This document shows, piece after piece, positions 1 to 9,455 of a stretch of DNA of 64,000 bases. How positions within the stretch are numbered: position 1 is the first letter of the stretch; each line of letters begins with the position of its first letter. The notes beneath the pieces are model-generated. The model saw only the letters and a program-made list of their open reading frames with translations. It was not told where the DNA came from and ran no database searches. A program made the translations under genes and the position numbers. Origin of the DNA: an uncultured Mycoplasmatota bacterium (GTDB lineage Bacteria > Bacillota_I > Bacilli_A > RF39 > UBA660); contig CANPIX010000002.1 in assembly GCA_947574215.1 (NCBI GenBank), positions 4,490 to 68,489 of the forward strand, in the 5' to 3' direction.

Positions 1-1986
1 AGAAATACCTTGTAAATGGAATTTCAGCACCTGTTTTAACAACTGGCTTTTTAGCACTCATATCTTCTTCAAATTTTACTATTGCATCTGGAACATGTGG
101 CAATACTTCTTCACTCATATATTCATTAATATCTTTTTTATATTTAACTATTTCAGTATCTTTTGTAGTTTTATCAAGAATAATTTCGCCATTTTTATCT
201 CTATGTATTTCTGCAGTCTTATCCATTACAGATAAGCCATCTGCTATTTTGTCAATTAAATTTTTATTTACTTCTGTATTATCAAAGATATTTTTTAAAA
301 CATTAAGAAAATCTTTCTCATTTTTATAAATTTTATTACTTTTATTATTTTCTAAAATTTTAAAAATTAAATCATACGTATTTTTATTATTTAAGTATTT
401 ATCTAATTCTTTCTTCTCTTTATATGGAATTGGCTCTAACAATTGAATTTCATCAACTTTATCCTGATTATAAAATTTATCAAAAGTACCATTAGTTCTT
501 AATTGTTCAATTCTTTCATCATTTATAGAATAATTTCTTTGTAATGGTTGATAAACTGCATATTCTTTATACAAGAACTCCTCTTTATCGAATATTTTGC
601 TATATTTATTTTCTTTAAAATCTGCATATATCTTTACTATTTTTTCGATTTGTTTTAGAGATAATTCTTTCCTCTTTTTACCTAGTGAAGTTCTTAATTG
701 CGTCCAAAATTCTTTACCTGTTGCATTAATAAGTTGTATTTTATTTCTTCTTTCTGGTCTTTTAGTTGCTTCTTTAGAAAGAATAAATATATAAATACCA
801 ATACCAGTATTATAAAATAAATCAGTTGGTAATGCTATTATTGCTTCTATTAAATCTTGTTCTATCATCCATCTTCTTATTTGGCTTTCACCCGATGATG
901 TTCCACCAGAAAATAATGGTGATCCATTTGTAATAATAGCTGCTTTACCATTATTATCCAATTTAGAAATAGCATGTTGCATAAATAATAATTGCATATC
1001 TCCAGTAGCAGGCAATCCTGCTCCAAATCTTCCTTTAAAACCTAATTTATATTCATCTTTGACAGCTTCTTCTACACCTTCAGCAGCATCTTTCCCACCC
1101 CAAGGTTGTCCAAAAGGGGGATTCATGATAACAAACCTCATTTTTTGTTCTCGTTCATTTAATGTCGCTCTAAAACAGTCTTTAATCATTGTATCTTGAA
1201 ATTTAATATTATTAGCATTTTGACCTTTTATCATCATATCTGCCAAGCATATAGCATATGATTCAGGATTAACTTCTTGACCAAATAATTGAACATCTGC
1301 ATCTGGATTCATTTTCATAATTGTATCTCTTGCAGTGCTAAGCATTCCACCAGTACCACAAGCTGCATCTAATATAGTAATTGCTTTACCTGCTTCCATA
1401 AGATCATCACAACCTTCTGAAAGTAAAATATCTACCATCAACTTTATTACTTCTCTTGGAGTAAAATGATCACCAGCTTCAGCATTTTCTGAAAACCTTC
1501 TAATTATATCTTCAAAAATATATCCCATTTTATGATTATCAACAGTTTCAGGATTTAAATCTAAATTAGAAAATTCTTTAATAACACCTAATAATCTATT
1601 ATTTTTGTCCATTTTATCTATTTCTTTTTCAAATGATAAATTGTCAATAATTTCTTTAACATTTGGTGAAAAACCTTTTATATATGATTTAAAGTTATCA
1701 GCAATGTGATCAGCATCATTTAGTAATTCTTTTAAATCAAATTTACTAGTATTATAAAAAGAATAACCTGATTTTCTACACAACATTTTACATGGCGTTG
1801 TTTTATCGCTATTATATTCATCTAATACTGCTTTTTTAGTTTTAGCAAGTGCACACTCAAATCTTCTAATGATAACTATTGGTATTATTACATCTTTGTA
1901 TTTATCGCTTTTATATGGTCCTCTTAATTTATTTGCAATACTCCAAACTATATTTACCTCTTTTGTTACATTAATTGTATCATTCA
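1..1986 (-). CDS. hsdM: Type I restriction-modification DNA methyltransferase subunit HsdM (partial; 3' end runs off window start)
   Basis: Minus-strand ORF with ATG at 1986-1984, open to position 1. It is absent from the ORF track because the window edge truncates it. My translation shows an HsdM-type N-terminus (VWSIANKLRGPYKSDKYKDVIIPIVIIRRFE), SAM motif I LDAACGTGGML, DHFTPREV, catalytic motif IV IMNPPFG, IALPTDLF, and a C-terminal GAEIPFTRYF typical of Type I M subunits. Confidence 0.8.
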
Positions 1987-2204
1987 TCTTTTTTACCTCT
2001 CTTAACTACTGCTTGTTGCTTATTTTCATCAATTTTAATTTTGCAATCTTTTCGATTAGTCATTTTTACATCATTGTCTTCTAAATGAAATATAACCATA
2101 TCTCCTTCTTCTAGTTCCATTTTATCTCTAACAATTTTAGGAATGGTAATTTGTCCTTTTGAAGTTAATTTTGCATTTGCCAAAATTTCATTATCATTAT
2201 TCAT
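1980..2204 (-). CDS. AbrB/MazE (SpoVT_AbrB swapped-hairpin) family small DNA-binding protein. Possible antitoxin or R-M controller.
   Basis: 74 aa. The motif KGQITIPKIVRDKMELEEGDMV is a typical AbrB/MazE looped-hinge beta-barrel signature. Its stop overlaps the hsdM start (ATGAATGA, 8-nt overlap), implying translational coupling. Confidence 0.7.
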   Translation of the reverse strand: MNNDNEILANAKLTSKGQITIPKIVRDKMELEEGDMVIFHLEDNDVKMTNRKDCKIKIDENKQQAVVKRGKKDE

Positions 2205-2285
2205 AATTTTTTCCTTACTTTCCTTACTCTTAAGTATAGCATATTTTTAATTAAAGATAAATATCTGAACAAAAAAAGAAAGAAA

Positions 2286-3134
2286 TTAATCTTTCTTATC
2301 AAACAAATCTTTAACTATTAAATCCTGTGAATGTAAATTATTATTTTTACCTAATAATAAATTTTCATAAAATTTAACTAAATAGCTACTATTTTCTTTT
2401 ATTTTTAAATAGTTATTAAAGTAATTACTTCTGACTAAAGCGTTTCTAAAATATACTGATTTATCTTTAAATAAACTATTATCCACATTATAACCTAAAC
2501 TTATTAAATATTTTTCAATAAATAATGCTGTTGTTCTAGTATTACCTTCTCGAAAAGGATGCACTTGCCATATATTAGATGAAAATTTAGTTATATTGTT
2601 AATAACTTCAACTATATTCATTTCTTTATAGTTTTTTTCTTTTTCTAAAGATATATCATATTCTAATGATTGAGTTAATGTATTACAATCTCCATAAGCT
2701 ACTGAATCGTTATTTAAGATTTTTTCATGTTTAGAAAAATCAATTTTTCTAAATTCACCTGCAAATTCATAAACATCTTGAAATAAAAACTTATGAACAT
2801 ATTTTAAATAATCAACTGATAATTCAAAATTATCTTCATCTAATAATTCAACTATTCTAGCAGATACAAAATCACATTCTAATTCATTATGATTTATTTC
2901 ACTTTTATTTTCTTTTTCAATATAGTATTCTCTTAATTCTTTTTCTACTTCTTCTATAGTTAAATTGCCTTCTATGTTTTCTTCTAATAGTTTTTCTAAA
3001 TATTTAGAAGGTTTTAAATTATCTACTTCTTGAAGTCCAATAGCCATATCCCATTGTAATTGTTTTACATAGTTACTAAATTTATATTCTTCTTTATATT
3101 CATTAACACTTGAATCTAATTCTTTTTCGCTCAT
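2286..3134 (-). CDS. Fic/Doc family protein (Fic_N plus Fic core) with variant active-site motif HPFREGNTRTT
   Basis: 282 aa. The N-terminal region resembles Fic_N (LQEVDNLKPS...IEGNLTIEEV). The core motif HPFREGNTRTTALF matches the Fic consensus HPFx(D/E)GNGRxxR, with the second Gly replaced by Thr. Confidence 0.75.
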   Translation of the reverse strand: MSEKELDSSVNEYKEEYKFSNYVKQLQWDMAIGLQEVDNLKPSKYLEKLLEENIEGNLTIEEVEKELREYYIEKENKSEINHNELECDFVSARIVELLDEDNFELSVDYLKYVHKFLFQDVYEFAGEFRKIDFSKHEKILNNDSVAYGDCNTLTQSLEYDISLEKEKNYKEMNIVEVINNITKFSSNIWQVHPFREGNTRTTALFIEKYLISLGYNVDNSLFKDKSVYFRNALVRSNYFNNYLKIKENSSYLVKFYENLLLGKNNNLHSQDLIVKDLFDKKD

Positions 3135-3497
3135 AATTTATACCTCCTATTCACTTACAATTATAGCATATCTTAATATATTTTTTAATCTTTATATACT
3201 ACATTTTTACTCATTTTCATTTTTAATGTTTCAGTCCATCCAGAAAAGAGTAAAAAAATACAAAAACTCTTTTTTTAAGTCGATAAATAGGAAAAACCAA
3301 AGAAGTTACTAACAAAATAAAGTATAGATTATAAAATAATAAAGCAATGAAGTATGTAATAACAAAAAGTACTATTACATATATCAAAAAAAGTACTTAT
3401 AATTCTTTAACAACACTTTTAAATATTCAGTCTATTCCAAATATACAAAAACAAATAGAAACTATTCTATCTGCATTTTTTCGTATTTTTAATAAAT

Positions 3498-5219
3498 TTA
3501 AAGTTTATAATTAATATACATTAATTCCATACTATTATATAGCAAGTTTTGATAAATTTCTTTTAATAAATATTGGCAATACACTGATCTAGTGTCTATT
3601 TTTAAGTTTTCATTAAAACCTAAAACATATATTATTTTTTTATTTCTAAACATATCCTTAAACTCATTTTTAGAAATAATTCTTTTATCTTCTTCGTTTA
3701 ATTTATCATAATATTGTTCTAAAATATTAGGCTCATTATCCCTAGCTCTACTAATTATTGAAGATGAAGTAAATACTTGATTTTCTAAATCACGCATCCC
3801 TGGTCCATTAAATTCACTTTTATTACACATTAAATAAACCGAATCATCATCCCAAAAAATCAAGTCTGCTATTTCAACATTTTTAAAATTTTTTTTATGA
3901 GCAAAAATAACATCATCAGATTCTTTAAAGGTTTCATTGTAATCATCTTCACATTTTTCATTCTTTTTCAAATTAAACGTTTTTACAATGCTATCATCTT
4001 CGCTTAAAATTATATCGCAAATATCTTTGTATTGTTGATTTAACATAGCAAAATAAGAATCCTCAAAAACATACCATTCACCATTTAATAAATAATAACT
4101 ATCACTTTCAATTTCTAAACAACCACGTATTAATGTAATAATCTTTGTTTGTGGGATAATTGTGTGTCCATTATCATCTAGAGTTAATAAATAATTGGAA
4201 TTTAAAAAATTCTTTATAAAATTGATACTCTTTTTTTTCTTACATTGTTCTACCATTAAACTAATTAAATCATCAAAACTAATTGGTTCTTCTTTTTTCA
4301 TTATTATACTATCATTATTTTTTATGATAAATTTATCTGACGAGAAGTAAAATGTTTCAATATCATCAGCTATAACTTCAAATGTTTCTATATTATTATT
4401 CAAAATACAATCATATAACAAATTGTTCAAATCTGATTTTTTCTTTCTTTTTTTCTCAGCAGGTACAAAGTAATTTAGAATAAAGTTATCTTCTTTTTTT
4501 GAAAGTTCAGATAAAGTATTTAGTACATTTTCAAGTATTTCAATAGATATGCTTTTTCTTATAACAAAGGAATCTCCACTTGATACACCTATTAATTTTT
4601 TGCTCTCTTCTACTGGAATACCCAATTTAGGAGCAAGTTCATTAGATATTTGTATTGAAAGTTCCTTATATATGCTGCCAATGTTACTTTCAGCAACTAA
4701 ACTACTCATATTTTTTGTAACTCTTCTAGTTGTTAAATTATTTCCACTAGTATTATTTTCTACAATTCTTTTTAAAACTGGATTATTTTTTTGTATTAAT
4801 TTAGGCAATAAATATAATCCAAAATTTTTCTTAATAAATTTAGATATATAATTACTTCCATGTCCACCTGTCATAACATATATTTCATCAGCAACTATTT
4901 TAAAAATTATATATGAAGAACTATCATTAAATATCTTAAATATTGTTTCATTTTCTTCGGTCATTTCCATCAAATTTAATATCAACGACTTCCAAATTGG
5001 CTCTCTTCTACTTTTTATAAAAAATATATAATATCCATTTTTTTCGTTTTTCTTAACATGATCTCTGCCACCACTTTTATTTATATAACATTCTAAATAA
5101 AATAATAATTTGTCCAATAATTCCTCTGTGCTATTTGTTTCATCAACATTATCTAAATTATCTAATATCTGTTGTTTAGAAATTTTATAAATGCTAAATT
5201 GAATTTCCTCTTTGTCCAT
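3498..5219 (-). CDS. Hypothetical protein, 573 aa, of unknown function. Candidate defence-island gene.
   Basis: Long minus-strand ORF with AT-rich codon usage consistent with its neighbours. I see no Walker A, HTH or other recognisable catalytic motif. It lies directly upstream of fic, the abrB-like gene and hsdM on the same strand. Confidence 0.6.
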   Translation of the reverse strand: MDKEEIQFSIYKISKQQILDNLDNVDETNSTEELLDKLLFYLECYINKSGGRDHVKKNEKNGYYIFFIKSRREPIWKSLILNLMEMTEENETIFKIFNDSSSYIIFKIVADEIYVMTGGHGSNYISKFIKKNFGLYLLPKLIQKNNPVLKRIVENNTSGNNLTTRRVTKNMSSLVAESNIGSIYKELSIQISNELAPKLGIPVEESKKLIGVSSGDSFVIRKSISIEILENVLNTLSELSKKEDNFILNYFVPAEKKRKKKSDLNNLLYDCILNNNIETFEVIADDIETFYFSSDKFIIKNNDSIIMKKEEPISFDDLISLMVEQCKKKKSINFIKNFLNSNYLLTLDDNGHTIIPQTKIITLIRGCLEIESDSYYLLNGEWYVFEDSYFAMLNQQYKDICDIILSEDDSIVKTFNLKKNEKCEDDYNETFKESDDVIFAHKKNFKNVEIADLIFWDDDSVYLMCNKSEFNGPGMRDLENQVFTSSSIISRARDNEPNILEQYYDKLNEEDKRIISKNEFKDMFRNKKIIYVLGFNENLKIDTRSVYCQYLLKEIYQNLLYNSMELMYINYKL

Positions 5220-5463
5220 TCATTACACCTCACTTCAAAAAATAAGCAGTATCCATCTTAAAAAAGAATGATACTGCTGTTCTTAACTACACTATACAAC
5301 AAAATTCGACAATTTTTAATATTTGAAGCAAAATTTATTGAGAATCGTTATTTTTGTACCAATAATAGGTGCAAAAACTTAGTTTTAGTATACTTTATCA
5401 ACAAATTACTTTCGCTCAGATACAACCGTCTTAATACCCTTATAAATTTAATCCATGAGAGAG

Positions 5464-5745
5464 CTAAGTCTCTCCTCCTGCATTTATGTGATTAGATACT
5501 AAAATCACATCGCTTCCTTTTCCATAAAAACTTTGTGCCCTTCCAGGTCTCACATCAGGAGATAAAGTTTCATCAGTTGTTCTAGTCATACTGTTTTCAA
5601 TTCCTAAATCGTCCAAACGATTATGGATATATTCACTTATTTTTAATGTGTACTCTTTCTCAGTAATTCCATTTGCAATAGTTCCAGGATCTGTCCCACC
5701 ATGACCAGCATCCAAAACCACTTTTTTTGTTGCTCTTATAGACAT
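5464..5745 (-). pseudogene. N-acetylmuramoyl-L-alanine amidase (Amidase_3, CwlD-like) N-terminal remnant. Truncated after ~93 aa.
   Basis: Translation MSIRATKKVVLDAGHGGTDPGT...DVILVSNHINAGGET carries the Amidase_3 N-terminal motifs (DAGHGG, SNH.NA) but stops at roughly half the length of a functional domain. Its RBS, start and first codons are repeated at 7300-7375. Confidence 0.55.
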
Positions 5746-5790
5746 GTTTTTCACCTCTACTATAAAGTATGAAAAAAGCACAATTTTGTT
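5715..5790. repeat. Direct repeat copy A (~75 bp, ~85% identical to 7300-7375) covering the RBS and 5' end of the amidase remnant
   Basis: ccaaaaccactttttttgttgctcttatagacatgtttttcacctctactataaagtatga here versus ccgaaaccactttttttgttgatcttatagacatatttttcacctctactataagatatga at 7300-7375. Confidence 0.7.
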
Positions 5791-6109: not shown

Positions 6110-6589
6110 TTAAACTTCTATTTTTTCTATTGTTAATACAAGTCCTTTCACTGTTGTATATTTTACTCCACCACTTGTAACCAGTTGAATTTGAACATTT
6201 TTTGCTTGATCTAATTTTATAGTTTTTGACATAGAAAATGTTAAATATTCCATATATTGGTTATTGTTATATAAATCTACGGAAATTAGAGTATTTCTAT
6301 CACCTGAATGAACATCTATTAATCGTAATAATAATTCTGAACTTATTCCATTTTGTGCCCATTGACCATTTAAATTAAATTCATATACTCCTGGTTCATC
6401 AATTAATACTTGATTACTACTTGCTGAAAAAATATTAGTATTCTGAGGAAATATATCACTTTGTTTAATTGTGAAAGTTCCAGACTTTCCATCATTATAT
6501 ATAACATTAATTGCTGCTTCTATACCACATGAGCCATAACAACCTTTGGGAACCACAAAATCTAGTTCATATTGCTCATTTGATTTCAT
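6110..6589 (-). CDS. Small C1q/TNF-like (BclA C-terminal-domain-like) protein, paralogue B
   Basis: 159 aa. The N-terminus YELDFVVPKGCYGSCG and the block EPGVYEFNLNGQ...LVLTIEKIEV resemble the paralogue at 6654-7112 and, by my recollection, the exosporium BclA C-terminal jelly-roll domain (ETGFYKIT...IIEKVA). Confidence 0.5.
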   Translation of the reverse strand: MKSNEQYELDFVVPKGCYGSCGIEAAINVIYNDGKSGTFTIKQSDIFPQNTNIFSASSNQVLIDEPGVYEFNLNGQWAQNGISSELLLRLIDVHSGDRNTLISVDLYNNNQYMEYLTFSMSKTIKLDQAKNVQIQLVTSGGVKYTTVKGLVLTIEKIEV

Positions 6590-6653: not shown

Positions 6654-7112
6654 TCATATTCTAATTTTTTTAATTGTAATATTTAACTGATTTGTAAAGG
6701 CCGTATCATTTGATGTAAGATACACTCGTAAACTTTTTATAGCGTCTATTTGTAAAATTTTTGTTTGTGAAAAAAACATTGTTGAAGATTGAAAAGCATT
6801 TGTTGTAAGTTCCACTGTTATAATATTTTCCATTACTGAAGTACCATAATCTATCATTTCTAAATATAAAGTGGCACTTTGAGCATTTTTTGATAATTTG
6901 CCACTCAAAGTAATTTCATAAAAACCTGTTTCATTTAATGCTATTTCATTATTTGCAATTGTAAAAATAGTTGTTGGATTAGGCAAAGTGTCATAACTAG
7001 TTATAGGCAACATTCCTTTTTGATTTTCTTGATAATTTGCAAATAAAATTGATTCTAAACCACAAGCTCCTTTTGGGATAACAAAATCTAGTTTATATTC
7101 ATCCAAATTCAT
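6654..7112 (-). CDS. Small C1q/TNF-like (BclA C-terminal-domain-like) protein, paralogue A
   Basis: 152 aa. YKLDFVIPKGACG, NETGFYEITLSGKL and a C-terminal ITIKKIRI. These blocks are shared with the 6110-6589 paralogue. Confidence 0.5.
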   Translation of the reverse strand: MNLDEYKLDFVIPKGACGLESILFANYQENQKGMLPITSYDTLPNPTTIFTIANNEIALNETGFYEITLSGKLSKNAQSATLYLEMIDYGTSVMENIITVELTTNAFQSSTMFFSQTKILQIDAIKSLRVYLTSNDTAFTNQLNITIKKIRI

Positions 7113-8525: not shown

Positions 8526-9455
8526 TCAATCTATCCTTTCTATTTCTAAATAATTAATGGGAAAACCCATTTTTTCTAAAACTTTTCCAATACTTATACT
8601 TTCTAATTTTCCATTTAATTTTTGTATTTCATAGTCAAGTTCTTTTATTAAAGAATGAAAATCATCTTTACGCAATAACTGCTTTAAAATAATAATTAAA
8701 GAAAATAAATCATCTTTACCATAAATATATTCCGATTCCAATTTAGGTATTTCTAATTTTTCATGAAATCTTGTATCATTAATTTTTCTTTGTACTCTGT
8801 GATCAAATAAAATTTCTTCATGAGCACACAAGTTTCGAAAATTAGCTAAAACGGGAAGATAAGTAGCCAAATCATTTGCATCTACCTTAAAAAACTCTGC
8901 AATGGCTTTCTGATCGCTTGGTTTCAAAATCAAAAAAAGTTCGCTAACAATCCCAAAAGACAAAACTTTCACGGCAATCCACAAAGGAATATATCCATAT
9001 CTTGAATTATAATGAGAAGTCGCTGTGTGACTATCAGCATTTGAACGAATCTGCCTTTTCATTTTATTAATCAAATCATTAATTTGCCTACGTTTCTCTG
9101 GGTGATTGTTAAAATTATTTGGATTTAAATAATCGTTTTCTTTAATACCATACGTTCTAGACAGATGGTACGAAATAAAACTTTTCAAATTATTTTCAAT
9201 AATCAGTAAATTTTTAAATAAAATATTTCGAACTTGACGATCAAAATTAAAAACGCCATACAATTGTCTAAAACTAGTTCCAGGAACAAAACTTTTATCT
9301 ATTAAAGATTTCATAAATAATGTTCGATATCCACTTATAAAGAAATAATTTTCACGTAGCAATATTTCTTTTGTCGCCGATACATCTTCAATAATCATCC
9401 CTTTGTTTTCTAAAATCAAAACCTGTTCATCTAAAGTTTTAAATATTTTATTCAC
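8526..9455 (-). CDS. Abi_2 family abortive-infection protein (AbiD/AbiF-like)
   Basis: 309 aa. The N-terminal pattern LDEQVLILENKGMIIEDVSATKEILLRENYFFISGY matches the Abi_2 (AbiD/AbiF) signature (..EQ..LL..RGL.I.D......L...NYYRLSGY). Its stop lies 1 nt from the htrA start. Confidence 0.75.
   Translation of the reverse strand: MNKIFKTLDEQVLILENKGMIIEDVSATKEILLRENYFFISGYRTLFMKSLIDKSFVPGTSFRQLYGVFNFDRQVRNILFKNLLIIENNLKSFISYHLSRTYGIKENDYLNPNNFNNHPEKRRQINDLINKMKRQIRSNADSHTATSHYNSRYGYIPLWIAVKVLSFGIVSELFLILKPSDQKAIAEFFKVDANDLATYLPVLANFRNLCAHEEILFDHRVQRKINDTRFHEKLEIPKLESEYIYGKDDLFSLIIILKQLLRKDDFHSLIKELDYEIQKLNGKLESISIGKVLEKMGFPINYLEIERID

Follow-up and report, generated by a model that had tools for sequence, protein, structure and literature searches.

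Classical Type II C proteins are Xre-type helix-turn-helix (HTH) proteins that act on inverted-repeat C-boxes (GACT...AGTC) and usually precede and delay the endonuclease gene. To our knowledge, the only dedicated transcriptional controllers of Type I restriction-modification (R-M) described so far are of the HsdC and RptR kinds, both of them helical. The classical picture of Type I R-M is one of post-translational control, exerted through ClpXP-dependent restriction alleviation or through assembly (reviewed in PMC12707154). HsdC, from Mycoplasma gallisepticum and other Mollicutes, is a small repressor encoded first in the hsdC-hsdM-hsdS-hsdR operon that binds direct repeats in the promoter (Fisunov et al., 2017, PMC5282649). 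RptR of enteropathogenic E. coli is likewise a small repressor that heads a Type I R-M defence island and binds promoter direct repeats (Zhang et al., 2025, PMC12255303).

Our results indicate a third, unrelated solution, a putative AbrB-fold repressor that shares its core and its operator with the antitoxins of toxin-antitoxin (TA) modules. The locus lies in the window, by which we mean the whole 64-kb stretch of DNA that was analysed, and its host belongs to a group of uncultured gut Bacilli that has received little study. Three genes follow one another on the minus strand: fic (3134..2286), a 74-aa AbrB/MazE-fold gene (2204..1980, hereafter abrB) and hsdM (from 1987). The domain calls made in the initial annotation (Fic, AbrB/MazE-type and hsdM) agree with the Pfam, NCBIfam and PADLOC matches and with their coordinates, and the small gene does lie just downstream of fic, 81 nt away on the same strand. 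The features of the locus are as follows:

3160..3188, minus strand: fic promoter-like site (TTAAAA, 17 nt, TATAAT with a TG extension; 10/12 with TG in the consensus scan)
2286..3134, minus strand: fic, coding for a 282-aa Fic-domain protein (Pfam Fic PF02661, 1.2e-11; PADLOC PDC-S72, 1.4e-80)
2271..2297, minus strand: terminator-like hairpin 3' of fic, overlapping the fic stop (AAGAAAGA / TCTTTCTT, then a T-run)
2233..2241, minus strand: predicted promoter of the abrB-hsd operon, extended -10 TGcTATACT (5-7 nt 5' of the repeat in the aligned loci)
2212..2227, minus strand: putative AbrB operator, the tandem direct repeat GTAAGGAAAGTAAGGA (2 x GTAAGGA, 9-bp period)
1980..2204, minus strand: abrB-like gene, 74 aa (PF04014, TIGR01439, AF2 and Foldseek)
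1995..2003, minus strand: Shine-Dalgarno-like AAGAGAGGT for hsdM, within the conserved abrB codons K68-R69-G70
1980..1987, minus strand: 8-nt abrB/hsdM overlap ATGAATGA (sequence read directly)
1..1987, minus strand: hsdM, coding for a Type I methyltransferase subunit and truncated at the window edge (662 of 696 codons; HsdM_N and N6_Mtase)

The hsdM reading frame matched HsdM_N (PF12161, 4.8e-23) and N6_Mtase (PF02384, 3.6e-60) in Pfam and MTase_I in PADLOC (3e-224). The window itself ends inside this gene; in loci L011 and L013, whose 696-aa HsdM proteins are 93-95% identical to that of the window, hsdS (446 or 425 aa) and hsdR (991 aa) directly follow hsdM. Judging from the comparison of loci, abrB is probably the promoter-proximal cistron of an abrB-hsdM-hsdS-hsdR operon and no partner of fic, and its product is most likely a transcriptional autorepressor that controls the operon. 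Control of the Type I system by the AbrB protein was the second of two hypotheses put forward in the initial annotation, and it agrees with all the comparative evidence, namely the linkage, the promoter and its repeat, and purifying selection.

Like hsdC, abrB is a small regulator gene that heads an hsd operon in low-GC hosts. Unlike HsdC, a helix-turn-helix C-protein homologue, the protein has the AbrB swapped-hairpin fold, the repeat differs in sequence, and its core is shared with TA antitoxins, whereas descent from a TA module is not reported for HsdC (PMC5282649). RptR too is the product of a head-of-island repressor gene and, across genomes, shows a strong association with Type I R-M, but it is all-helical and HTH-like, has a TAGCTA core site, belongs to Gammaproteobacteria and is unrelated in sequence and fold to the AbrB-like protein; the available part of the report makes no mention of an overlap with hsdM, in contrast to the abrB loci (PMC12255303). 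With the classical C proteins the system shares a small protein, presumably DNA-binding and autoregulatory, that is encoded in the R-M cluster and co-transcribed with an enzyme gene; it differs from them in the AbrB fold, the direct repeat GTAAGGA x 2 and a methyltransferase as the partner gene. A literature search for AbrB-, SpoVT- or MazE-headed hsd operons, or for the 16-mer, found nothing relevant.

The 74-aa protein scored 41.4 bits against Pfam MazE_antitoxin PF04014 (cutoff 24.7) and 44.9 bits against NCBIfam TIGR01439 AbrB (cutoff 28.3); no HTH family was matched in Pfam, NCBIfam or Foldseek, and no PADLOC model either. An N-terminal extension precedes its swapped-hairpin DNA-binding core, which covers residues ~11-50; the tail that follows, NRKDCK..Q.VVKRG, is conserved. 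The best Foldseek matches of the AF2 model were AbrB, SpoVT, Sso7c4 and MazE N-domains (rmsd 1.5-1.9 A over ~42 residues, probability 0.97-1.0), with E-values that are weak because the AbrB domain is small. Residues 11-50 are thus predicted to form the AbrB/SpoVT/MazE fold. AbrB-PIN (VapBC-like) antitoxins of gut and anaerobic Firmicutes (L149-L268) have the same core, AK(V/L/I)TSKGQ(I/V)T(I/L)P, the same extended -10 and 16-mer, and a tight or overlapping junction with the next gene. However, they are 80-94 aa long, with a helical C-domain for toxin binding and a ~132-aa PIN toxin encoded next, whereas the R-M-linked clade spans 72-75 aa and has an N-terminal extension, another short tail and then an R-M methyltransferase gene. 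In the alignment, the helical toxin-binding C-domain of the TA group is absent from this clade, which has a different ~24-residue tail instead.

The 8-nt stop/ATG overlap noticed in the initial annotation was borne out: ATGAATGA is common to the abrB stop TGA (1982..1980) and the hsdM ATG (1987..1985), which is the sole start codon after an in-frame stop at 2008..2006. A methyltransferase gene follows the abrB stop in every locus of three sets, and its start overlaps that stop by 8 nt (ATGNNTRR) or 1 nt (TAATG) in 29/29 loci retrieved by protein similarity (from 17 uncultured gut Bacilli species and from metagenome contigs), likewise in 13/13 further loci retrieved by DNA motif, and by a 4-nt ATGA in 6/6 loci of a BcgI-like branch. 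Since an overlapping methyltransferase gene follows this type of abrB in 48/48 loci with readable downstream DNA (8, 4 or 1 nt), the overlap is not due to chance. The idea that hsdM is translationally coupled to abrB appears right; of the proposed 8-nt overlap in homologues, the overlap itself stood in 48/48 loci and the length did not. Furthermore, an AGAGGT or AAAGGT element lies 8-10 nt before the methyltransferase ATG in 13/13 distinct loci examined. No PIN, MazF or Doc gene adjoins abrB at the window, and the gene downstream was an R-M methyltransferase in 48/48 loci. As a case against its proposals the initial annotation had named a small gene away from both fic and hsdM: fic is absent from most abrB loci, and absence of an R-M methyltransferase was found in none of the 48 loci.

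The partners themselves are diverse. The HsdM proteins measure 522, 530, 575, 696, 777 or 797 aa and are 25-95% identical to that of the window, and a further partner is a 682-aa fused nuclease-methyltransferase with a separate S subunit (a BcgI-like R-M/S pair). Because the methyltransferases behind abrB differ so widely, the regulator seems to have been kept while Type I and BcgI-like enzymes were exchanged behind it. Starting a protein search from the most divergent R-M-type member brought up only 8 relatives and no exception to the R-M linkage. We also considered abrB as a part of the island's conserved landing pad, and rejected this given that the three-gene BcgI-like cassette (abrB-RM-S) occurs in six unrelated contexts and always includes abrB.

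These data bear on whether abrB does anything at all. The gene is clearly of TA-family descent and has lost the toxin-binding domain, as would be expected of an orphan antitoxin that came to lie beside an R-M operon by chance insertion and is now a decaying, functionless remnant. However, its dN/dS of 0.05-0.42 shows that abrB is under purifying selection, the length and the tail of the protein are kept across 258 clusters, the overlap with the methyltransferase start is intact in 48/48 loci and several methyltransferase lineages, and abrB travels with the cassette. A remnant is therefore strongly disfavoured, to the point of being hardly credible.

The conserved tail deserves separate consideration. 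Its invariant or near-invariant residues are N50, K52, D53, C54, Q64, V67, K68, R69 and G70, and in the AF2 monomer model it is predicted to be disordered, with a pLDDT of 45-57 as compared with 82-85 in the core. Counting against the main model, a conserved C-terminal tail that is predicted to be disordered hints at a partner. The tail might bind HsdM or the M2S complex in the way an antitoxin tail contacts its toxin, making the protein an antitoxin or co-repressor at the protein level, so that restriction is held in check or the methyltransferase becomes a co-repressor; this would be compatible with DNA binding and add a step to the main model. The near-invariance of a tail of such low pLDDT fits this idea, as does an architecture that is exactly that of an antitoxin-toxin pair, with a shared operator and overlapping stop and start. 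On the other hand, the tail is conserved across partners of ~25% identity and the BcgI-like fusion enzyme, which argues against a specific, co-evolving interface, and its K-R-G codons are under a further constraint as DNA because they carry the hsdM Shine-Dalgarno. We consider tail binding unlikely.

Upstream of abrB, each of the 35 R-M-type loci retrieved by protein has a single exact copy of the 16-mer GTAAGGAAAGTAAGGA; none of 63 control loci has one, and the 64-kb window contains just one. Across the R-M-type loci the 16-mer does not vary, unlike the -35 region, the spacers and the coding DNA, which have diverged. The extended -10 is conserved in the aligned loci except L028 (TAAAAT), and the -35 region and the flanks are not conserved. 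We found no GTAAGGA half-sites elsewhere in the operons, nor did the rest of the operon or the fic promoter contain a second operator. A scan for the -10 box plus the 16-mer yielded 120 metagenome loci; in ~105 of them an AbrB homologue comes immediately 3' of the motif, usually with a PIN toxin as its partner. Having been chosen through the motif, these loci cannot alone measure how often it accompanies the protein. A scan of viral contigs with the bare 16-mer gave 41 matches, about the chance number by a rough estimate, and only one was informative, the phage contig L141, in which the 16-mer accompanies an AbrB-VbhA fusion and a Fic toxin.

The 16-mer spans the predicted transcription start and the 5' UTR, and its second GTAAGGA copy contains the abrB Shine-Dalgarno, so part of the conservation of the repeat has another cause. 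The repeat could work as RNA, as a double Shine-Dalgarno or standby site or another 5'-UTR element, with no DNA operator and with the small protein otherwise employed; its position in the predicted 5' UTR and the AAGGA in each copy, the second being the abrB Shine-Dalgarno, are in line with this. Against it, the first copy has no start codon at a usable distance and no Rfam family matched the abrB leader. Relatives found by protein alone provide a further argument: those with AKVM(S/A)KGQ in place of AK(L/V)TSKGQ have GTAGG(G/A)A repeats instead, tandem or inverted and in some cases upstream of the Shine-Dalgarno, so that in these relatives the half-site covaries with the DNA-binding loop of the AbrB protein. 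In L272-L275 the half-site is inverted (CCTACTT) and stands upstream of a separate Shine-Dalgarno; inversion preserves a DNA site but not an RNA sequence, which speaks against an RNA-level role. We regard such a role as quite improbable.

A DNA operator for an autorepressor, our preferred reading, would operate as follows. The extended -10 promoter (TGcTATACT, 2241..2233) would start transcription at GTAAGGAAAGTAAGGA (2227..2212) or no more than one or two bases away. We infer that the AbrB-fold protein, presumably as a dimer or a dimer of dimers, binds both GTAAGGA half-sites and so prevents initiation or promoter escape; negative feedback would then set how much of all the operon's products is made. 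hsdM would be translated by coupling, its ATG overlapping the abrB stop and its Shine-Dalgarno lying in the abrB K-R-G codons. Candidate physiological roles are a copy-number-independent dosage or induction upon repressor depletion. As all the genes belong to one operon, autorepression alone cannot delay HsdR relative to HsdM, unlike the action of classical C proteins.

As for its origin, the DNA-binding core and the operator belong to a family of AbrB-type antitoxins found in PIN and Fic TA modules; in this branch the short conserved tail has replaced the toxin-binding C-domain, and the methyltransferase gene of an R-M cassette has taken the place of the toxin. With core and operator shared and a methyltransferase gene next, abrB therefore looks like the DNA-binding module of an antitoxin with an R-M operon in the toxin position, and the locus links regulatory parts of two classic types of addiction module. 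It is tempting, though rather speculative and on balance doubtful, to extend this to an R-M operon run by TA logic, in which the antitoxin-derived repressor is labile or titratable via its disordered tail, possibly with the methyltransferase as co-repressor (conditional cooperativity). If so, loss of the element or host shut-off by a phage would de-repress or unbalance the R-M system, giving inducible restriction and stronger addiction, and promoter, operator and abrB would form a portable cassette onto which different R-M systems exchange. The autorepressor model is simple to test: the system comprises one 16-bp site, one 74-aa protein and an operon with a single promoter.

Finally, we weighed the first hypothesis of the initial annotation, a TA pair in reversed order in which the Fic toxin is neutralised by the downstream AbrB protein. 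The window Fic has a non-canonical motif, HPFREGNTRTT, and its nearest solved relatives are the class I Fic proteins VbhT and Bep, with similarity to E. coli Fic as well. Its AF2 model was poor (mean pLDDT 61.9) and no inference was drawn from it; a Pfam VbhA match at residues 31-68, the place of a possible intramolecular inhibitory domain, was not significant (E = 0.21). A pairing is suggested by 8 loci (the window, L011-L014, L026, L028 and L029) in which fic precedes abrB at a distance of at most 1.5 kb, by a weak, below-cutoff match of the AbrB-like protein to NCBIfam doc_partner (E = 0.002), and by L141, which, resembling the class I VbhA/VbhT system, joins the same AbrB core and operator to Fic in a genuine module. 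Yet the L141 fusion antitoxin contains SLNMEG, the SxxxEG helix expected to inhibit Fic, whereas the (S/T)xxxE(G/N) motif is absent from the 74-aa sequence, read directly. The window also differs from VbhA/VbhT and L141 in that fic precedes abrB, appears to be transcribed separately and occurs elsewhere without AbrB.

Fic proteins 88-90% identical to that of the window were found in 15 places (L093-L107), in two architectures, without AbrB (tblastn, E up to 10) and without the 16-mer. Conversely, more than 25 loci (L002-L010, L015-L024, L027 and L297-L302) have abrB but no fic, and in L029 fic is split into two fragments beside an intact abrB-hsd operon; homologue clusters number >8000 for Fic versus 258 for AbrB. 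Loci that have abrB and loci that lack it alike keep a tatgctataat box 5' of fic, and the fic leader lacks the operator 16-mer. The A/T-rich hairpin downstream of fic was spotted by eye; its computed folding energy is about -7.5 to -8.4 kcal/mol, and it recurs after fic in the abrB-less L099. A consensus terminator scan of 1700..3600 found none, since it requires 3 G-C pairs and the stem has fewer. Fic and AbrB thus occur independently, and fic is, by its signals, a putative transcription unit of its own and an independent neighbour or passenger outside the abrB-hsd unit. On this co-occurrence and transcription-unit evidence we rejected the reversed pair, which is very improbable. A small AbrB/MazE gene is accordingly not always an antitoxin, nor is the nearest toxin-like gene necessarily its partner, a caution for annotation.

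A historical basis for the idea of a Fic/AbrB pairing can be seen in L141, where the same AbrB module and operator belong to an antitoxin-first AbrB-VbhA/Fic pair.

The three genes under study all lie on the minus strand, in a region of 22–29% G+C, and were delimited as follows.

fic, 3134..2286, minus strand: 282 aa, with a Pfam Fic match, the motif HPFREGNTRTT and a PADLOC single-gene candidate hit (PDC-S72) at 1.4e-80
fic-abrB spacer: 81 nt
abrB, 2204..1980, minus strand: 74-aa ORF matching MazE_antitoxin (PF04014) and the AbrB model TIGR01439, both above cutoff
hsdM, from 1987 and past the window edge after 662 codons, minus strand: HsdM_N and N6_Mtase, PADLOC MTase_I at 3e-224
abrB stop/hsdM start overlap ATGAATGA, minus strand: TGA 1982..1980, ATG 1987..1985
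Shine-Dalgarno-like AGAGAGGT for hsdM: inside the conserved abrB codons K68-R69-G70

The overlap of the abrB stop with the hsdM ATG, described in the initial annotation, was borne out and ATGAATGA read as stated; this ATG is the sole start codon after the in-frame stop at 2008..2006. The window edge falls inside hsdM, which is therefore incomplete; in L011 and L013, two comparison loci whose HsdM is 93–95% identical to the window's, hsdS and hsdR follow hsdM. An AF2 model of the abrB product gave an AbrB-like core (pLDDT 82–85) that superposes on the N-domains of AbrB, SpoVT, Sso7c4 and MazE, and the protein belongs to the AbrB/MazE/SpoVT superfamily. Its tail (residues 51–74) is modelled with low confidence yet is conserved, and part of it is doubly constrained, as the hsdM ribosome-binding site. 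A conserved disordered tail may serve oligomerisation, turnover or the binding of a partner, for example the methyltransferase (MTase).

A protein search outlined a tight abrB family of 258 clusters, ~60% identical and conserved over the whole length, in which all but three of the members listed have 72–76 aa. When one genome per species was scanned, full-length members were confined to 17 MAGs, of which 14 carry the label uncultured Bacilli; the 63 other matches shared the generic N-domain only and were used as controls. An MTase gene lies directly 3' of full-length abrB in 29 of 29 loci and in none of the 63 controls, and the abrB stop overlaps its start every time, by 8 nt (ATGNNTRR) or 1 nt (TAATG). 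The partner HsdM proteins (522, 530, 575, 696, 777 or 797 aa) are 25–95% identical to the window's, and each is accompanied by an hsdS and hsdR of its own, sometimes with an extra AAA_13, GmrSD-like or M48-like gene (the last two labels being sequence readings by eye, not profile scans). Both overlap types are scattered over very different HsdM lineages, so regulator and enzyme genes have recombined repeatedly and still stay joined. In a BcgI-like branch, the overlap is 4 nt and the next gene encodes 682 aa, in which a nuclease-like motif (PD...ESK) is joined to N6_Mtase/Eco57I; the gene of a 386-aa Methylase_S subunit comes third, and this three-gene cassette was found in six unrelated genomic contexts. 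The overlap, whose conservation the initial annotation proposed to check, is thus always present, but its length of 8 nt is not constant. As to whether homologues of the small gene occur without fic and hsdM, fic is mostly missing, but the overlapping MTase gene is there in all 48 loci with readable downstream DNA, 13 of them retrieved by motif. The dN/dS of abrB ranged from 0.05 to 0.42, and the gene is under purifying selection. So far, uncultured gut Bacilli and their metagenomes are almost the only source of this R-M-type clade (abrB heading an MTase operon).

Upstream of abrB, every locus carries an extended −10 box (TGnTATACT or TATAAT; TAAAAT in one aligned locus), 5–7 nt, and then an invariant 16-mer, GTAAGGAAAGTAAGGA, made of two GTAAGGA units with a 9-bp period and located 6–10 nt before the abrB ATG.

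abrB −10 box, 2238..2233, minus strand: with the TG at 2241..2240
16-mer, putative AbrB operator, 2227..2212, minus strand: repeat match in the window

The −35 region, spacers and flanks are not conserved across loci. Each of the 35 protein-retrieved loci contains the 16-mer exactly once, as does the 64-kb window, and it is absent from the 63 controls; no further GTAAGGA half-sites were found elsewhere within the operons. Judging from the position of the −10 box, transcription would begin on the first repeat base or beside it. Three loci (L226, L251 and L142) have three consecutive GTAAGGAAA units where others have two, so the number of units 5' of the AbrB gene varies. In L015–L018 and L021–L024, a conserved gene of 111–118 aa lies on the opposite strand, ~100–455 nt upstream of abrB and divergent from its promoter region; it has no Pfam match. 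Farther out come HNH and replication-like genes, so this divergent gene may belong to a phage-like element.

In viral contigs the 16-mer was matched 41 times, roughly the chance level by our own estimate. One of these matches is on a phage contig of 46% G+C (L141, IMGVR_UViG_3300049638_000960), which carries TATAAT, the 16-mer, an AbrB protein gene and a Fic gene in succession.

L141 toxin-antitoxin (TA) pair, 1049..1995, minus strand: AbrB-VbhA-like fusion antitoxin, then class I Fic toxin

This antitoxin (103 aa) joins an AbrB DNA-binding domain to a C-terminal half with the VbhA inhibitory motif SLNMEG, and the adjoining 200-aa toxin has the canonical HPFREGNGRAIR motif. A metagenome scan for the −10 box plus 16-mer gave at least 120 loci; being picked by the motif, they do not measure its frequency. 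Among the matches listed, an AbrB homologue is the next gene downstream in ~105, and ~90 of these homologues are 80–94-aa antitoxins with a helical C-domain; of the 83 loci with a readable second gene, 61 have one from a single cluster, and the member of it that was scanned is a PIN toxin. Fourteen of the listed loci are of the 72–75-aa R-M type, with an overlapping MTase gene next in 13 of 13 with visible downstream DNA. Aligned, the R-M and TA types share the core AK(V/L/I)TSKGQ(I/V)T(I/L)P..(I/V)R and have two different C-termini. Among proteins retrieved without the motif, L269, with a TSKGQ protein, retains a single GTAAGGAA copy, while seven M(S/A)KGQ proteins have GTAGG(G/A)A repeats, in tandem at 9 bp in L271 and L276 and at 18 bp in L270; in L272–L275, inverted CCTACTT copies lie upstream of a separate Shine-Dalgarno sequence. 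The covariation of site and protein, together with the inverted copies, argues against the 16-mer being merely a ribosome-binding leader and for a DNA site read by the AbrB domain. The window AbrB protein descends from a TA antitoxin family.

The abrB product most likely represses its own operon by occupying the tandem repeat across the predicted transcription start. Translation of hsdM would be coupled to abrB through the Shine-Dalgarno-like sequence in the K68-R69-G70 codons, and hsdS and hsdR would follow on the same transcript, as in L011 and L013. Such negative feedback would keep R-M expression steady at any copy number and yield a burst of expression on entering a naive cell, and depletion of the repressor would de-repress the operon. 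Autorepression alone cannot delay HsdR relative to HsdM.

Classical C proteins have an HTH and inverted C-boxes, whereas the window protein has an AbrB fold and a direct repeat. The suggestion that AbrB is a C-protein-like controller of the Type I system thus holds for its place, always at the head of an R-M operon, and probably for its mode of action, but not for its family. Among the small repressors documented at the start of Type I operons, with direct repeats in the promoter as their binding sites, are HsdC of Mollicutes (PMC5282649) and RptR of E. coli (PMC12255303); both are helical and unrelated to the AbrB-fold protein. In function the window AbrB would resemble C proteins, HsdC and RptR, without being in any of those families. 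Neither an AbrB-fold regulator of an R-M operon nor the 16-mer turned up in the literature searched, a 2025 R-M biology review among it. The window AbrB does not qualify as an antitoxin, since it lacks both a toxin-binding domain and a toxin gene next to it.

The initial annotation had also proposed a Fic toxin and AbrB antitoxin in reversed gene order. Fic homologues form >8000 clusters, far outnumbering the AbrB family, and the best 120 all have 278–283 aa. In islands of this kind, Fic proteins 88–90% identical to the window's are encoded immediately upstream of either of two other modules, hsdR-hsdM or two Dcm-type methylases followed by a McrB-like gene; in these architectures neither an AbrB homologue (tblastn, E up to 10) nor the 16-mer was found. 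Most abrB loci lack fic, and in L029 fic is broken and the abrB-hsd operon intact. Whether or not a locus holds abrB, fic is preceded by an extended −10 promoter of its own; the GTAAGGA repeat was not found in the fic leader, and a hairpin follows the gene.

A/T-rich hairpin and T-run after the fic stop, 2297..2271, minus strand: about −7.5 kcal/mol, also in an abrB-less locus

Given the independent occurrence, the separate fic promoter, the repeat-less leader and the hairpin, we rejected the reversed pair for the window locus; fic looks to be a passenger beside the abrB-hsd operon. The 282-aa Fic directly precedes an R-M-type module in three architectures (abrB-hsdMSR, hsdR-hsdM, and Dcm x 2 plus McrB-like). 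Its motif HPFREGNTRTT is invariant in L093–L107 and non-canonical (compared with HPFx[D/E]GNGRxxR, it has T for G and T for the last R), and N-terminal residues 31–68 bear a weak, non-significant likeness to VbhA. In L011 (3482..4990) and L013 the fic frame stays open for 502 codons, across the fic promoter into upstream sequence; in the window a 363-nt non-coding gap (3135..3497) replaces this extension. Since the 120 best homologues are all 278–283 aa, the longer ORF probably reflects either an artefact of gene calling or the fusion of an upstream remnant.

A variable defence island (window 1..5781, minus strand; compare L002–L011, L025–L027, L094 and L099–L107) houses the R-M operon.

Truncated Amidase_3 fragment, 5781..5464, minus strand: 105 aa, island edge
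DUF6119/TIGR04141 'sporadically distributed' protein, 3498..5219, minus strand: 573 aa, beside fic
Two tandem paralogous ORFs, 6110..6589 and 6654..7112, minus strand: 159 and 152 aa, both starting ..DFV(V/I)PKG.CG..
AbiD/Abi_2 abortive-infection gene, 8526..9455, minus strand: PADLOC AbiD at 7.2e-58, outside the island, adjoining an HtrA-like gene

Related loci have a large serine recombinase at one island end, and the cargo between amidase fragment and R-M module varies by locus: DUF6119, Fic, reverse transcriptases, RnlAB, HamA with a DEAD helicase, an AAA ATPase with an S8 peptidase, and DUF262-type proteins. The island looks like an integrative element targeting an amidase gene. The window DUF6119 protein is only 34–35% identical to its L011/L013 counterparts, against >90% for the flanking genes, and has no PADLOC match; it is a candidate fast-diversifying defence gene. 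The tandem paralogous ORFs sit between the amidase fragment and the HtrA-like protease gene. The AbiD/Abi_2 gene, syntenic with L002 and L007, is apparently conserved chromosome backbone near rplM-rpsI.
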